DNA from: a phage
Direction: 5' to 3' (one strand)
NCBI GenBank assembly: GCA_018580065.1
Contig: GCA_018580065.1_4845.1
DNA: 46,716 nucleotides
The notes beneath the pieces were generated by a model that saw nothing but the letters and a program-made list of their open reading frames with translations, searched no databases and was not told the origin of the DNA. Below are positions 1-14,613 of this stretch, piece by piece. The position numbers and the translations under genes are program-made. The first letter of the stretch is position 1. Every line of letters begins with the position of its first letter.

Positions 1-120
1 AAAAAAAAACTCCTGTCGGAAAGCGAGATGCGCATCTCTCCGATTTCTGTTAGTGGCGTGCGATTGCTCATGTTTTGCATCCTGAATTTGACTGATGTTG
101 ATTATATCATCTCAGTGGTG

Positions 121-4848: not shown

Positions 4849-5289
4849 TTATAGATTTGAATCAGCGAAAAAACAATGGCGACCACGCCAAGAATAATGT
4901 CCAATTTCGCCGCCCCATTTAAAAGTGATGGAAAGGATGAACAGATGGATGCCGATAATAATAAATGCGTACTGCACATGAAGCGGCGTTTCTACAGGCG
5001 TGATAAATTCCCATACGAATGACTCTATCGCAACCAGCCATTCGTAAAGGCTCATCGTCAGCACGCAAAGCGCCATCTTTGTACTTTTGCGCAGCGCAAT
5101 AGCCGGAAACAACCAGACCATAGACTGCGCAAGGTAATACAGATATTCGGCGGGAAATGAATCAACAAGCACCCATCCAAGATACACAGACATCACCATT
5201 GCCGGAATGAACACCAGAAACGCGAACATGCCTGTGCAGGCAAAACCCAGCACATACATGATCATGATGGTAACATCTGCGCCGAACAT
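4849..5289 (-). CDS. polytopic membrane protein (about 4 TM helices)
   Basis: ORF track 146 aa, hydrophobic segments throughout. Confidence 0.5.
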   Translation of the reverse strand: MFGADVTIMIMYVLGFACTGMFAFLVFIPAMVMSVYLGWVLVDSFPAEYLYYLAQSMVWLFPAIALRKSTKMALCVLTMSLYEWLVAIESFVWEFITPVETPLHVQYAFIIIGIHLFILSITFKWGGEIGHYSWRGRHCFFADSNL

Positions 5290-5455: not shown

Positions 5456-5484
5456 TTGACGTAGATTGATGGTGTGTTTATAGT
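5456..5484 (+). promoter_or_regulatory. sigma70-like promoter, TTGACG-17nt-TATAGT, with two copies of the GACGTAGA motif
   Basis: TTGACGTAGATT at 5456-5467, TATAGT 5479-5484, second motif copy GTGACGTAGAAA at 5487-5498. Confidence 0.6.
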
Positions 5485-5524
5485 TAGTGACGTAGAAACA
5501 ACAATAAATGTTAGAGGTGATGAA

Positions 5525-5785
5525 ATGTTTGATATTGATAACCCAAGTGATGACAAAGCCAAGCTGATTGATGCGGTCGCTTGCAGTTTCGCATCTTGCC
5601 AGACAGAAGGTGAATATCAGGTTGTGAAAATGTGCATTGTTGAGTTCTTCTCGGCAATCAACATTCCTGATGATGAGGCGGTTGATATTCTGCTGTGTGC
5701 CGCTGGGAGCTCCACTGAGGCGGACGAGTGCATTGATGAACTGGTTGAGGAGTTTGGCGGCATTTTCCAGGGTGATGAGGAGTAA
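5525..5785 (+). CDS. small highly acidic protein, candidate DNA-mimic anti-restriction protein
   Basis: 86 aa from ATG 5525 (RBS AGAGGTGA); very Asp/Glu-rich; first gene after an early-type promoter. Confidence 0.5.
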   Translation: MFDIDNPSDDKAKLIDAVACSFASCQTEGEYQVVKMCIVEFFSAINIPDDEAVDILLCAAGSSTEADECIDELVEEFGGIFQGDEE

Positions 5786-5787
5786 TC

Positions 5788-5979
5788 ATGGCAAACATGT
5801 ACTACTGTATGTTCCGCAATACCGTGATTGATTTTCGTGATTGCGTTGATGCAATTGGTAATGCTGAGTCTATTGACGAGTTCAGCAATTCAGAACACAA
5901 GTCTGCCGAGCGCCTGTACCATCTGGCTAATGAGTACGTCGCATATTACGAGCAATTGTTAGAAGAAAGTGGTGAATGA
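5788..5979 (+). CDS. hypothetical acidic protein
   Basis: ORF track 63 aa. Confidence 0.45.
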   Translation: MANMYYCMFRNTVIDFRDCVDAIGNAESIDEFSNSEHKSAERLYHLANEYVAYYEQLLEESGE

Positions 5980-5980
5980 T

Positions 5981-6790
5981 ATGAAAACACTAAGCAAAAT
6001 CTATTCAGACAAAGAAACACGCAACGGCATCGCTGTTAACAAAACCTATCTCGTGCCAGTGGAGCAAATCTATCTGGAGCCGGGATATAACATCCGTGAA
6101 GCAGATGAGCAGCATGTTGAATATTTTGCGCAGTGCTGGGAGTCCGGCCAGCCATTACCAGCATTAACAGTTATTCCAGACGAGAAGGGAATCCGCATTC
6201 TTGATGGTCAGCATCGCTATCTCGGCGCATTGCGTGCCATTGAGCGCGGAGCACCAATCGTTCGAATTGAGTGCAAGGATTTCACTGGCGACGAGGCGGA
6301 CAAAATCGCCTTCATGGTGTCATCAAGTCAGGGTAAGCAGCTTGACCCGTTTGAGCGCGCAAAGGCTTACACGCGACTGAAAGGCTTCGGCTGGACGAAT
6401 GAAGAAATCGCAAAAAAGGTAGGGCGCTCAGTATCTGACGTGCAAATGCATCTGTCTCTTGGTGATGTTCCGGCGGAAGTAAAAGCGCGAATCAGCGCCG
6501 GGCAAATCAGCTATGCAAATGCCGTAGCAGTAACTCGTGAGCATGGTGACGATGCGGTAAAGGTTATCGACGAGGCGGTCGAGGAAGCCAAAGCGCAAGG
6601 TAAGGATAAGGTCACTGCGAAGGTGCTGAAGTCGAAAAAGATTAAGCCAGTAGACCGTCTGATTGAGTTATTGAAGCCAGCAGACCACGTGATTCTTCCT
6701 GCTGGTCATGTGGTGGCAGAGGATGAGGAATTTATCCAGATTCCTGTTGCTGACATTCACGAGGTTATGGCAATTCTGGAGAAGATGTGA
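5981..6790 (+). CDS. ParB-like nuclease domain protein with C-terminal HTH
   Basis: ILDGQHRYLGALRA motif typical of ParB/Srx N-domain; RBS before ATG 5981. Confidence 0.65.
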   Translation: MKTLSKIYSDKETRNGIAVNKTYLVPVEQIYLEPGYNIREADEQHVEYFAQCWESGQPLPALTVIPDEKGIRILDGQHRYLGALRAIERGAPIVRIECKDFTGDEADKIAFMVSSSQGKQLDPFERAKAYTRLKGFGWTNEEIAKKVGRSVSDVQMHLSLGDVPAEVKARISAGQISYANAVAVTREHGDDAVKVIDEAVEEAKAQGKDKVTAKVLKSKKIKPVDRLIELLKPADHVILPAGHVVAEDEEFIQIPVADIHEVMAILEKM

Positions 6791-7281
6791 TGAACACAAC
6801 TAAAATAAATTGGGGTGATATTTTTCATTATGAAAATGGGGTGCTTAGGTGGAAGCACCAAAAAAGAAAAATGCTAAGTGGCTCTTTAGCTGGGACAATT
6901 GCAAATACAGGATATGTAATCATATGCGTTGATTACAAAAAATTCTTGGCTCACAGAATCATATGGGAGATGTTTAATGGACCAATCCCTGACGGGATGC
7001 AAATTGATCACATTAACCATATTCGTAATGATAACCGCATTGAAAACTTAAGGCTGGTAAGCCATATAGAGAACCATAGAAATCTTAGTAGGCAGAAAAA
7101 TAACAAATCAGGAAGAACTGGCGTTAGCTTTGACAGGAAGAGTGGGTTATGGAGGGCTTATGTATCAAAGATGCATATTGGTTTTTTTGCCAATAAAGAA
7201 GATGCAATATCCGCTAGAGAAAAAGCTGAAACTTCAACTGGGTATCACGAGAATCACGGAGTAAAAAGTGAACGTTTATGA
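6787..7281 (+). CDS. HNH homing endonuclease with AP2-like DNA-binding domain
   Basis: IDHINHIRNDNRIENLRLVSHIENHRN HNH motif; C-terminal GVSFDRKSGLWRAYV AP2-like segment. Confidence 0.8.
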   Translation: MMNTTKINWGDIFHYENGVLRWKHQKRKMLSGSLAGTIANTGYVIICVDYKKFLAHRIIWEMFNGPIPDGMQIDHINHIRNDNRIENLRLVSHIENHRNLSRQKNNKSGRTGVSFDRKSGLWRAYVSKMHIGFFANKEDAISAREKAETSTGYHENHGVKSERL

Positions 7282-9321: not shown

Positions 9322-11200
<1,879 letters not shown>

Positions 11201-11537
11201 GGTTAACTCTCCACGGTTAGTTTGTGGTCGAATTATAACACAGGGAGATGTAGCACCATGAGGCGGTAGCCAGTGCAAATAATGGCGAATCGGTGAGTGC
11301 GTAGAGTGTGAGAAAGTAAGTGATAGGGATTATGTTCATGGGCTACCTCCTGATTAAATGATAGCAGCCCATGATGAATAAAAGATATACGGTGTTAGTC
11401 TGAAATTACATCATCCATGAATGCGAGAGCAGCACCTGTAAGACAAAACAGAGCGCCATAGCAAATCATCTGGTACAGAGTGTCAGCCTCAAATACCCTT
11501 GCGAATGCGTATGCTGATAATATCCACAGTAATGGAA

Positions 11538-11726: not shown

Positions 11727-12049
11727 AACCCAGACTCCTGTTTTGCGCGATGCACGTATGACATAAACTTGCCAATCGGCATTTCCTTGCGGATTTGCGC
11801 CAGAATTGCTCCATGCAACATCCTTTCCTCACCAAAATACAGTTTATCAAGACGAGTTTTGATGAGTGCTCGCGTGCGCTTCATGTGGTCGCGCGCCTTA
11901 AGTGCCTTCTCATGCCAGATGCGGTCATTCTTCTTATCCGCATATTGAAGTTGGCGCTCAACGGTTTCGATTTCAAACGCAAGTTGCATGTCATAATCCT
12001 CAAGCTGAATGATGTCTGCTTTCATGATGTCGTTCAGTTGGATAATCAT
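11723..12049 (-). CDS. hypothetical protein
   Basis: ORF track 108 aa. Confidence 0.45.
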   Translation of the reverse strand: MIIQLNDIMKADIIQLEDYDMQLAFEIETVERQLQYADKKNDRIWHEKALKARDHMKRTRALIKTRLDKLYFGEERMLHGAILAQIRKEMPIGKFMSYVHRAKQESGL

Positions 12050-12438
12050 TTTTTCACCTTTAGTCCTGCACTGATAATTGCTTTCTCTGTCGCCATGACG
12101 CCATCGTTATAGCCTTGAGTCCATTCGTTATCATTATCACCGTCTCCGCATAGCCACGGCGTTGCAACTTCAATTGCTGCACGGGATGCCTGCCACGCCA
12201 TCCATGCAAGGTTTGTTTGATGGCATTTGTACTGCTGGTCATCCCATTCTGTCATTGGGTACTCCGTGCGCCATAAATCAAAGCCTGTTTCTTCCTTAAT
12301 CCACTCCTCAAACTGCTCTCTACTCGTCATCTTCACTTCCTCCACTATCCAGCCCATCTTTCTACGGTTATTGGCAATAAACTCATCCGATGTTACAAAC
12401 AGAGTTCTGCCTGATTTATGCTTAATAGCCCATCTCAT
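12046..12438 (-). CDS. hypothetical protein
   Basis: ORF track 130 aa. Confidence 0.45.
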   Translation of the reverse strand: MRWAIKHKSGRTLFVTSDEFIANNRRKMGWIVEEVKMTSREQFEEWIKEETGFDLWRTEYPMTEWDDQQYKCHQTNLAWMAWQASRAAIEVATPWLCGDGDNDNEWTQGYNDGVMATEKAIISAGLKVKK

Positions 12439-12563
12439 TTAGTACATCCTCAGCAAGTTTGCGGAACATGATTTGCACTCTTGCCACCTTGCGCCACTCA
12501 GCCTCGGTGAGAATCACATCTTCCTGCCGCGGCATTCCTGACATTTCGCATGGCGGTAATGGC

Positions 12564-13052
12564 TCATACTCTTGCTTCTTGCGTTTGGACTTCCCCATGA
12601 TGACCTCTTACATTGCGAAGAAGTGAATTAAACAGATTGCCGACGTTAACCTCCTGCTCACTCCATGAATAACGCCATATCTTCTTGTGGTGGTCATAGC
12701 TTCGCGTTACATCGCCGTTATGAAACATGATGCGAATGCGGCTTTTCACGATGCGGTAATCAATACCAGTGGCGGCGCTAATCTCTTTCACCTCTGCGCC
12801 AGCGTTATCAAGCATGTGGCACTTAATCGCATCATCAATACCTGCCGCATCATCAGATATAAAATATTTATACTGCCACTTCCCGCCACGAATCACTGAC
12901 TTCTCGCGGCGAATAAAGCCAAGCGCAAGCATCTCATGCAAACGATGCGTTGTGGTGCTTGAATGCTTTCCTCTGCAATGCTCCTCAATGTATGCACGCG
13001 TTGCGCCGGGATGCATCATAATCACGCGCATGATTTGCGATTTATAATCCAT
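12564..13052 (-). CDS. putative DNA-binding protein (winged-helix-like)
   Basis: ORF track 162 aa; basic helical N-terminal region. Confidence 0.4.
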   Translation of the reverse strand: MDYKSQIMRVIMMHPGATRAYIEEHCRGKHSSTTTHRLHEMLALGFIRREKSVIRGGKWQYKYFISDDAAGIDDAIKCHMLDNAGAEVKEISAATGIDYRIVKSRIRIMFHNGDVTRSYDHHKKIWRYSWSEQEVNVGNLFNSLLRNVRGHHGEVQTQEARV

Positions 13053-13299
13053 GAGCGCGCTCCTCTACTGCCTGATTAAAGTCTTCGGCGATGTACAGAT
13101 GTCCGTTGCGGGTGTTCCATTTTTTAATTATGACTGATTTCTGTTGATACAAATCAGTTGCAATGCCACACCCCAAGCAAACAATTTGCGATAATCCATC
13201 CTCTCTATCCATTGTCGCATCTCCGCTACCACAGAACGGGCACTCAAGCAATCCTTCATCATTCATCATCGGCATATGTGGTGCGCTCATTTCAACCAT
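13042..13299 (-). CDS. Lar-like zinc-ribbon protein (restriction alleviation family)
   Basis: CPFCGS...CLGCG zinc ribbon followed by KKWNTR, matching Lar-family pattern. Confidence 0.5.
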   Translation of the reverse strand: MVEMSAPHMPMMNDEGLLECPFCGSGDATMDREDGLSQIVCLGCGIATDLYQQKSVIIKKWNTRNGHLYIAEDFNQAVEERAHGL

Positions 13300-13481
13300 T
13301 CTCCAATGTTGTTAAATTTAGGCGCATCGCCAGACCAGTCGATGACATCTCTTTGCTGACTGCGCTTGCGTTGCAGACGGTTTCGCACCTCTCGCAGCTC
13401 ACATTCAAGCCATTCACGAGTGCGCTCAACTTCATTCAGTCGCCGGATTAGCGATTGTTCGTACAGTTCGTCATGCGCCAT
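13287..13481 (-). CDS. hypothetical coiled-coil protein
   Basis: ORF track 64 aa. Confidence 0.4.
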   Translation of the reverse strand: MAHDELYEQSLIRRLNEVERTREWLECELREVRNRLQRKRSQQRDVIDWSGDAPKFNNIGEWLK

Positions 13482-13541
13482 TTGTAATTTCTCCCGTAGA
13501 ACTTAATAACAACGTGCTCAACGCACAGATAACCTTCGTCT

Positions 13542-13739
13542 TCAACCGTTACTGGTTGAACTATAAACCACCGCAGATATAAGTTCGTCAGCCTTTTCAC
13601 GACCAGCAACCTCCGCTTCAAGCGCCAGTGAACACATGGCAGTTTCCACATACTTAATGGTGTCCTCGCGTACGTTAAGTATTTCCATAACCTCGCGCAC
13701 CTCTTTCTGATATCTCGCTGCTATTTCTTTGTATCGCAT
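13542..13739 (-). CDS. hypothetical protein
   Basis: ORF track begins with TTG at 13769; first ATG at 13739. Confidence 0.4.
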   Translation of the reverse strand: MRYKEIAARYQKEVREVMEILNVREDTIKYVETAMCSLALEAEVAGREKADELISAVVYSSTSNG

Positions 13740-13767
13740 TTCCACATCACCTTTTACGTTGTGGTAC

Positions 13768-13814
13768 AATCTACGTCAATAAGTATTGACTATGTGACGT
13801 AGAAACGTCAAGAT
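13768..13814. promoter_or_regulatory. divergent promoter/operator region with inverted GACGTAGA motif pair
   Basis: AATCTACGTCAA (13768-13779) and TGACGTAGAAA (13795-13805) form a dyad; TTGACT -35 at 13786-13791. Confidence 0.45.
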
Positions 13815-13837
13815 GTTTTCGAGAAGGAGTAGTAAAT

Positions 13838-14032
13838 ATGCCAAGACCACGACGCGAGCCGATGGACATTATCACCAGCATTGTGGAGAAGCGGCAGCCG
13901 CTGACACTCCGTGATGTTCGCTACTTTGCCCGTTGCTATGTGGCACTGGCTGATATGCCTAAAGATGAGATGTACCAGATGATTCGTGAGAATTTTAATG
14001 TTGATGAAAATAACCGGGTGACGATGAAATGA
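13838..14032 (+). CDS. hypothetical protein
   Basis: ORF track 64 aa; GAAGGAG RBS. Confidence 0.5.
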   Translation: MPRPRREPMDIITSIVEKRQPLTLRDVRYFARCYVALADMPKDEMYQMIRENFNVDENNRVTMK

Positions 14033-14613
14033 AAAAATGGAAATATCTGAAAGGCTGTGAGGATGATTTTGCTGGCCATGACACGGCTTATCTTGTAGTT
14101 AAGTCAGGAAGTACTGGTGAGATTTTCTATCTAAGCATAGATTATGCTGGTCGCATTGAAGTGATTGAGGGTTGCGGGGATGTTGTTATTGCATACCGCG
14201 AGCCAATTACCGACGAGCAAGACCTCAATGATTGCATTGGTGCGCCGGAAGCAGATTTGAATCGAGGTGGCTTTATTCCCAACACCACATTTGTTGGCGG
14301 TTTCCTGCCTGAAGGATATCCGACCTTTGGTCACACCAATTGCCGATGCAAGTCAGTTAAAGTTGGCGAGACTCACATCGACGGGAAATGCCATGAGGCG
14401 CAACTTGGAAACAAATACCTGCACGAAATTAAGCCTGGTGTATTTGTTGACGTGTACGATGTGCTCATGGCGTGGAATGTCACAAATCCAGCGCTGCAGC
14501 ATCTGATTAAAAAGGCACTGCAGCCAGGCGAGCGCGGACACAAATCACGCGAACAGGATTTACAGGACATCATTGATAGCGCAATTCGCGCAAAAGAACT
14601 GGAGATTAAATAA
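14029..14613 (+). CDS. hypothetical protein
   Basis: ORF track 194 aa, coupled to neighbours. Confidence 0.5.
   Translation: MKKWKYLKGCEDDFAGHDTAYLVVKSGSTGEIFYLSIDYAGRIEVIEGCGDVVIAYREPITDEQDLNDCIGAPEADLNRGGFIPNTTFVGGFLPEGYPTFGHTNCRCKSVKVGETHIDGKCHEAQLGNKYLHEIKPGVFVDVYDVLMAWNVTNPALQHLIKKALQPGERGHKSREQDLQDIIDSAIRAKELEIK

Follow-up and report, generated by a model that had tools for sequence, protein, structure and literature searches.

A Lar-family zinc-ribbon gene with a hypervariable central cassette in a Skatevirus-like siphophage

The functional analogue invoked for Lar is Ral of phage lambda, which is not a zinc ribbon and is, according to the literature, without sequence relationship to Lar. 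Ral, which is small and made early, relieves restriction of type IA, enhances modification and confers only partial protection (PMC2993543; 10.1101/2023.04.06.535777). Lar itself comes from Rac, a prophage carried by Escherichia coli K-12 (RalR; ralR/lar, b1348), where ralA adjoins ralR with an overlap of only 2 nucleotides (nt). Here we report on a Lar-like gene within a stretch of phage DNA of 46,716 nt (contig GCA_018580065.1_4845.1 of assembly GCA_018580065.1), hereafter the window, which by sequence comparison is a new Skatevirus-like siphophage, in a cluster of siphophages with genomes of 45–48 kb whose hosts are Salmonella, E. coli, Shigella and Klebsiella; its closest relatives match it at ~90% identity across ~70% of its length. 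A check of the open reading frames (ORFs) of the region 12564–13299 found two that overlap on the minus strand, which an earlier note had described as an 85-amino acid (aa) Lar-family protein and a 162-aa putative DNA-binding protein, possibly an anti-restriction pair. The identification of the Lar-like gene is not new, as in RefSeq and GenBank records of dozens of related phages these two genes are already named, in turn, 'Lar-like restriction alleviation protein' and 'MarR family'. The cassette structure of the Lar-like protein described below is, to our knowledge, apparently unreported, no paper in our literature searches describing it.

On every sequence measure used, the Lar-like product is a genuine member of the Lar family. 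It scores 44.1 bits against the Pfam profile PF14354 (Lar_restr_allev; gathering threshold 28.6, E=2.4e-11) and 41.2 bits against NCBIfam TIGR03655 (anti_R_Lar), the latter only just above the cut-off of 39.6, and it matches PHROG 599 ('Lar-like restriction alleviation protein') with E=3.6e-13; the search against family profiles that the earlier note had proposed as a check therefore came out in its favour. A single BLASTP comparison with Rac Lar/RalR gives 28% identity over 53 aa (E=3e-8), and a phmmer search with RalR over all ORFs of the window ranks the Lar-like ORF first (E=8.8e-6). The CPFCG, CxxCG and KWNTR motifs from which the family had been recognized are all in this ORF (C17PFCG, C38LGCG and K57WNTR61; translation MVEMSAPHMPMMNDEGLLECPFCGSGD...VCLGCG...KKWNTRNGHLYIAEDFNQAVEERAHGL), which is the single match in the window to the six-frame motif query C..C-8..30-C..C-5..30-W[NDS].[RK]. 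The spacing is also that of Rac Lar, with 18 residues from C20 to C38 (C12 to C30 in Rac Lar) and 17 from C41 to W58 (C33 to W50), and the W, N and R of WNxR are invariant in 55 relatives and in an alignment that includes RalR. An AlphaFold2 (AF2) model built from a 55-sequence alignment is confident, with a predicted local distance difference test (pLDDT) of 85.8, and places a β-hairpin between the two knuckles, a helix running up to W58 and another helix within the C-terminal tail; it predicts a four-cysteine zinc ribbon followed by a helix ending in WNxR, with predicted zinc binding. In agreement, the best fold matches in BFVD, a collection of predicted viral structures, are named Lar-family restriction alleviation proteins. 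A sequence search of the PDB returned only chance-level matches to the zinc ribbons of GATA, aIF2-beta and TFIIB and no solved Lar relative, and Foldseek against the PDB found generic zinc ribbons (TFIIB, Elf1, aIF2-beta), none with E<=0.001 and all with E>=0.03. A second Lar-like gene, as annotated in phage KFSST1, was not found in the window by motif, clade profile or RalR phmmer, nor among the ORFs checked at 25.5–29.3 kb.

The coordinates and the minus-strand overlap given in the earlier note stand, whereas its start codon is probably 9 nt too far upstream. The ORF 13042–13299 encodes 85 aa and 13042–13290 encodes 82 aa, and the ATG at 13290 is the more likely start because it shares an ATGA with the stop codon of the 64-aa ORF upstream, has a GGAG 10 nt upstream, corresponds to the Met at which the family alignment opens and gives a length in line with the annotated orthologues (228–252 nt, mostly 246–249), while the ATG at 13299 lies only 1 nt past GGAGA. 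All residue numbers used here refer to the 82-aa form, which is organized as follows.

13042..13290, minus strand: coding sequence of the Lar-family zinc-ribbon protein, 82 aa (PF14354, TIGR03655, PHROG 599, BLASTP to Rac Lar/RalR, AF2, BFVD)
13228..13290, minus strand: conserved N-terminal segment MSAPHMPMMNDEGLLECPFCG (entropy 0.48 bits, median pairwise identity 86%)
13231..13242, minus strand: first zinc knuckle, C17-P-F-C20, from the translation (C20 invariant, C17 in >=90% of 55 cluster representatives)
13120..13227, minus strand: hypervariable cassette, aa 22–57, comprising the β-hairpin, the second knuckle and most of helix 51–58
13168..13179, minus strand: second zinc knuckle, C38-L-G-C41, the only invariant residues within the variable cassette
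13108..13119, minus strand: W58-N-T-R61 motif, 17 residues past the second knuckle (W, N and R invariant)
13042..13107, minus strand: conserved clade-specific C-terminal tail (NGHLYIAEDFNQAVEERAHGL) and stop codon

The central part of this protein varies far more than anything around it. In a per-gene comparison with nine Skatevirus-group relatives, out of twelve clade phages compared, the flanking genes share 90–97% aa identity with those of the window and the Lar-like protein only 50–61%. The exceptions are INT55 (90%) and IME207 (83%), so that the window carries a core allele of the INT55/IME207 type, unlike that of its closest genomic relatives. Leaving these two aside, the drop in DNA identity is limited to nt ~60–180 of the gene, at 33–60% against 73–98% on either side. 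The same boundaries emerge among 55 cluster representatives, on which the conservation statistics of the cassette were computed: the median pairwise aa identity is 86% for residues 1–21, 25% for residues 22–57 and 60% for residues 58–82, and C38 and C41 are the only invariant residues within the core. The cores fall into at least 23 families at <50% identity, and core distance is uncorrelated with the distance in the termini, in the 162-aa neighbour and in the other variable gene of the operon.

Cores of a single allele family are under purifying selection, with proportions of nonsynonymous differences (pN) of 0.03–0.07 at proportions of synonymous differences (pS) of 0.23–0.48, which corresponds to a pN/pS of roughly 0.06–0.16 (VSt472, Skate, D10). 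The flanks within the Lar gene have pN of 0.02–0.13 at pS of 0.21–0.79, and from these comparisons the N-terminal segment is under purifying selection as protein. Pairs of genomes give the history of the cores. The window and INT55 share a near-identical core with a pS of 0.09, against 0.43 in the flanks; Bas80 and DS8 have a synonymous difference of 0.05 in the core against 0.30 in the flanks; Bas80 and swi2 have near-identical flanks and unrelated cores, and the swi2 core itself looks internally chimeric. These sequence patterns are those of cassette alleles that are each kept by purifying selection and are exchanged by intragenic recombination between conserved termini, and they suggest that residues 22–57 act as a specificity module against a variable host target. 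Indeed, a sharply bounded, recombining and allele-structured core is the kind of signature that marks direct host–virus interfaces. A diversity-generating retroelement was considered as the source of the cassette and rejected, as no template-like repeat is present in the window (longest match 13 nt).

The 130-aa ORF of the same operon (phrog_343) is also variable: conservation is limited to the ~36 aa at its N terminus (MRWAIKHKSGRTLFVTSDEF...), and the remainder occurs in discrete allele families, which reassort independently of those of Lar. In IME207 and DS8 the variable part of this ORF is replaced by a cysteine-rich acidic sequence.

The Lar-like gene belongs to a leftward operon of tiny overlapping genes (overlaps of ATGA, 11 nt, 35 nt and 17 nt), which runs from ~13770–13837 toward the head genes and includes the following features.

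13770..13837, no strand assigned: divergent intergenic region, the presumed start of the leftward (including Lar) and rightward small-gene operons, with sigma-70-like hexamers on both strands
13287..13481, minus strand: upstream 64-aa ORF, phrog_15697, whose TGA overlaps the Lar ATG (ATGA)
13042..13052, minus strand: 11-nt overlap of the Lar stop and the start of the 162-aa gene (ATGGATTATAA)
12564..13052, minus strand: 162-aa basic protein (phrog_1687, E=1e-56)
12422..12598, minus strand: downstream 58-aa ORF, phrog_17117, with a 35-nt overlap with the 162-aa ORF
12046..12438, minus strand: 130-aa ORF, phrog_343, variable like Lar and the only other such gene of this operon

The DNA of the Lar C-terminal tail contains both a GAGGAG Shine–Dalgarno sequence and the start of the 162-aa gene, and this geometry, together with the 11-nt overlap, points to translational coupling of the two ORFs. 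The point 13287–13290 is also a site of accessory-gene insertion: an extra gene of 219–222 nt lies between the 64-aa ORF and Lar in Bas77, Bas80, INT55, Skate, IME207 and DS8 (e.g. L004, 2283–2504) and is absent from the window, VSt472 and swi2. Furthermore, HNH endonuclease genes are inserted near Lar in relatives, and such insertions may promote local recombination at the gene.

That the Lar-like ORF overlaps the 162-aa ORF in one operon, as the earlier note had it, is borne out by these coordinates; the anti-restriction pair that it had proposed found no support. The 11-nt overlap is also annotated in Bas77, INT55, Skate, DS8, swi2, KpV2811, pYD38-A and ZCKp20p, and is reduced to 1 nt in phages of the Segz_1 type. 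The 162-aa protein stays 88–94% identical while the Lar core swaps among unrelated alleles, and the rank correlation between Lar-core distance and 162-aa distance is close to nil (rho ~0). Moreover, HMMER, run exhaustively over 1.84 billion representative proteins, gave just 8 relatives of the 162-aa protein at E<=1e-3, all of the same family, and in the phage collection this family occurs only in the clade that has the Lar-like gene (156 records against 202 for the Lar-like gene). The 162-aa protein is, as far as these searches go, a clade-restricted orphan. Lar-family proteins, on the other hand, occur in unrelated phages and prophages without the 162-aa gene, as in Rac, where Lar has no neighbour of this type, and among the BFVD fold matches. 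The pair is not supported because there is neither co-variation nor co-occurrence beyond vertical synteny, and the linkage is, on this comparative evidence, shared synteny with translational coupling within one phage clade and not an independent association. In a search for Lar contexts outside the clade, tblastn with RalR returned mostly Rac-like phages (six at 97–100% identity) and one Klebsiella phage (49%), and a sampling of related loci, by patterns that turned out to be clade-specific, gave 12 of 14 loci from the same clade. As a separate, anecdotal observation, a single unrelated phage (L021, positions 1711–2426; IMG/VR, 54,449 bp, rich in guanine and cytosine by eye) encodes a 147-aa protein in which an N-terminal Lar domain (CPFCG...WNTR) is fused to a C-terminal extension that is helical by eye only; directly upstream, and overlapping the Lar-domain gene by 4 nt, there is a 91-aa ORF that looks like a helix-turn-helix (HTH) protein, again by eye only.

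Regarding the 162-aa protein itself, the ORF is real, and for its description as putatively DNA-binding there are only winged-helix matches below threshold. The protein is basic, with an isoelectric point (pI) of 9.4, and both phrog_1687 and RefSeq carry the name 'MarR family'. However, it falls short of the Pfam thresholds of the MarR family (PF01047/PF12802), with 18.6 against 27 bits for MarR_2 (N-terminal half) and 13.4 against 24.6 bits for MarR, and its C-terminal half gives sub-threshold winged helix-turn-helix (wHTH) matches to AF2008 and AspA (E ~0.04). A Klebsiella-phage orthologue behaves alike, with MarR profiles below threshold and a weak HTH_24 match for the C-terminal half, and against NCBIfam the window protein has only weak matches to Lrs14 and Sta1, far below the cut-offs. 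In hhalign one half can be laid over the other in register, with E=0.012 and a low probability, and an AF2 model from a shallow alignment has a pLDDT of 52, too low for use as a fold. From these sequence comparisons, the 162-aa protein probably consists of two tandem winged-helix-like modules and a C-terminal helix. It is like the MarR-family regulators in that its N-terminal 65 aa form a helix-helix-helix-hairpin in the low-confidence model and have weak MarR_2/PadR-like matches, and unlike them in what look like two wHTH-like modules in tandem, where those regulators have a single wHTH between dimerisation helices.

The earlier note had counted a second candidate anti-restriction function in the window, an acidic protein of 86 aa encoded at 5525–5785 on the plus strand. 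This ORF has a pI of 4.05, with 22 D+E against 3 K+R, and matches phrog_14587 ('anti-restriction protein') with E=2e-43; as listed, it begins at GTG 5474, and a scan of this longer reading only (5474–5785) against NCBIfam gave no match. It is, like the DNA-mimic proteins Ocr and ArdA, small and very acidic, and is placed in a PHROG named accordingly, but a 95%-identical copy is present in Bas77, a phage sensitive to restriction-modification (R-M). Two candidate genes are indeed present, as judged from the 'anti-restriction' PHROG and from Lar membership; however, Bas77 has both and is still restricted by type I systems, and to speak of 'two anti-restriction functions' is not to say that protection has been demonstrated.

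The window contains 5 EcoKI sites (at 5225, 19107, 21784, 22440 and 44043) where 7.45±2.8 are expected, that is, no avoidance, and GAGN6RTAYG, which we take to be the StySB recognition sequence, is not avoided in the window either (7 sites against 3.8 expected). The phage carries type I target sites and is therefore a substrate for such systems. Phenotypes are available for the relatives Bas77–80, which all have Lar-like genes with differing core alleles. The efficiency of plating (EOP) of these phages is 0.02–0.2 on EcoKI (type I), for which they have one site per genome (PMC11990801, S1 data and S2 table), 1.4e-4 to 1.3e-3 on EcoCFT_I (type I, 2–3 sites; PMC11990801 S1 data), and mostly 1e-5 to 1e-7 on the type II and III systems EcoRI, EcoRV, EcoCFT_II and EcoP1_I, for which they have many sites (PMC11990801).

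The reading that we favour, tentatively and with confidence somewhat short of even, is that the Lar-like gene codes for an accessory protein whose binding partner is a host protein and not DNA. A protein target is suggested because the window protein and 54 of its 55 clade relatives are acidic, unlike RalR (pI 9.1); the window protein has a pI of 4.7, the clade median is 4.6 and those 54 relatives are all below 7. The leading candidate target would be a type I R-M complex, by analogy with Rac Lar, in which case Lar would shift the methyltransferase to de novo methylation and thereby relieve in part the restriction of genomes that replicate or co-infect. The constant part of the activity would lie in WNxR and in the two conserved terminal segments, and residues 22–57 would provide an exchangeable specificity surface, its more than 20 allele families being moved between phages by recombination. 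The 162-aa protein, simply co-translated, would most likely have a separate DNA-binding or regulatory function and not be an anti-restriction partner.

A number of observations weigh against this proposal. Neither the Lar-like gene nor, in Bas77, the acidic protein strongly protects against EcoKI or EcoCFT_I, and the allele has no visible effect, which weakens the case, and the single EcoKI site in each of Bas77–80 suggests continuing type IA selection or host-specific site depletion. Rac Lar, the only family member ever assayed for restriction alleviation, was later described as the non-specific DNase toxin RalR (PMC4041452), and in the PhageMaP preprint a Lar-like gene of Bas63 is conditionally important in strains without intact type I systems (PMC11482910). 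The Lar label in fact goes back to a single experiment, done in 1995 with a prophage protein of 28% identity and opposite charge: the window protein is acidic where Rac Lar is basic (pI 9.1), and at 82 aa against 64 it is 18 residues longer, with clade-specific conserved N- and C-terminal extensions. Also, a scan for promoters and terminators over 11.0–14.2 kb gave consensus-level matches in numbers not exceeding those in shuffled sequence. Since alleviation of the Ral/Lar type is partial by nature, we consider the anti-restriction hypothesis less probable in view of the phenotypes but not refuted by them.

Less probable, although to be taken seriously, is a Lar-fold host-takeover or anti-defence factor directed at something other than type I R-M, such as a type IV enzyme, another nuclease-based defence or a housekeeping protein, or a variability that serves escape from abortive-infection sensors. 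The sensitivity of the Lar-carrying relatives to both type I systems assayed, whatever the allele, is in line with this, and the strains in which the Bas63 gene matters are without intact type I R-M but have type IV systems (PMC11482910), even if the interpretation given with the PhageMaP data is the authors' speculation. Likewise, reshuffled discrete alleles under purifying selection fit an arms race with a polymorphic host factor, and anti-restriction proteins are known to trigger sensors such as PARIS (PMC11455837). However, no family member has a demonstrated non-type-I target, and type I alleviation is the one function that experiments have given for the family. We also entertain, as an idea more likely wrong than right, that Lar of the Skatevirus and Roufvirus groups is a polymorphic specificity system, in which a constant frame (N-terminal 21 aa, WNxR and C-terminal tail) would serve as effector or anchor for more than 20 anciently diverged cores, kept by selection and exchanged by intragenic recombination, each matched to a variant of host defence (e.g. 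the type I R-M families) or to the evasion of a sensor. If this were true, Lar would be a programmable anti-defence scaffold and not a single-target alleviation protein. The relatives Bas77–80, which infect E. coli K-12 and carry different alleles, make the binding targets of Lar-fold proteins readily testable.

The remaining explanations fare worse. It is improbable that zinc ribbon and 162-aa protein work as the two parts of a transcription or DNA-binding regulator governing the phage's own early/late switch, for which the Lar name would be misleading: although their coupling is kept across the Skatevirus and Roufvirus-like clades despite divergence to 36–50% identity and the Lar C-terminal tail is more conserved than the 162-aa neighbour, more than 20 unrelated Lar cores go with a neighbour that is 88–94% identical, without correlation, and the neighbour family is absent outside the clade where Lar proteins are not. 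Zinc ribbons often contact nucleic acid or RNA polymerase, as in the fold matches TFIIB, Elf1 and aIF2-beta, but those PDB matches are generic and not significant (E>=0.03), and the Lar-like protein is acidic; the HTH-like ORF, assigned by eye, that overlaps the Lar-domain gene start by 4 nt in L021 would fit such a regulator, whereas a search of 13440–13900, around the divergent promoter region, for operator-like repeats yielded only short ones at chance level. We give very little credence to a RalR-type endodeoxyribonuclease that damages host DNA as a toxin or host-shutoff nuclease. The protein is homologous to Rac RalR, whose RefSeq product name speaks for this activity and which reportedly cleaves methylated and unmethylated DNA non-specifically as the toxin of a type I toxin–antitoxin pair (PMC4041452), but with the equivalog model of RalR, NF007260 (cut-off 113), it scores 18.3 bits, is, like 54 of the 55 clade members, of opposite net charge (pI 4.7 against 9.1), and is a zinc ribbon of ~80 aa in which no active site of a nuclease can be recognized. 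The reported antitoxin of RalR is an RNA encoded in trans (PMC4041452), and no counterpart is evident here, though no RNA search was made. Just as implausible is a neutral drift of the central region as a structurally tolerant loop, with a cassette devoid of any specificity role. Conservation across the Pfam family is restricted to the cysteine ligands, CPFCG and WNxR, and the fold thus accepts nearly any core sequence; against drift stand the low pN/pS of the core within an allele family, boundaries that are sharp at the DNA level, and identical cores within flanks that differ at 30–43% of synonymous sites, which argue for recombination of maintained alleles.

Some observations concern other parts of the window. 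At 5969–7281 on the plus strand a ParB-like protein (phrog_1033) is directly followed by an HNH endonuclease (phrog_99), and the annotation of the related phage KFSST1 has a RusA-like resolvase downstream of ParB; the position of HNH genes differs from relative to relative. The 194-aa ORF at 14029–14613 (plus strand) looks chimeric, as its residues 1–78 and 109–192 match different function-unassigned PHROGs, and relatives match one part only at high identity (61–97%, 30–100% coverage). Finally, the 496-aa ORF at 9788–11278 (minus strand), which starts at TTG, is probably over-extended: its relatives, annotated as DUF2213 or 'prohead core protein serine protease', have 1287–1422 nt, mostly 1413 nt, and the match to PHROG 760 starts at residue 70.

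With respect to the known systems, the window protein resembles Rac Lar in the CPFCG motif, in the spacing of the knuckles and of WNxR, in being a small single domain and in being encoded among early or accessory phage genes. It departs from it in the C-terminal tail, which Rac Lar does not have, and in its genomic context, Rac being a lambdoid prophage with recET and the ralA antisense RNA and the window a siphophage of virulent type. The closest counterparts are the annotated Lar-like genes of Skatevirus, Swiduovirus, Deseoctovirus, Shuimuvirus and Roufvirus (VSt472 gp22, Bas77_0030, IME207 gp32, KpV2811 gp45), which are like that of the window in position, in operon, in the coupling to a 'MarR family' gene and in the termini of the protein.

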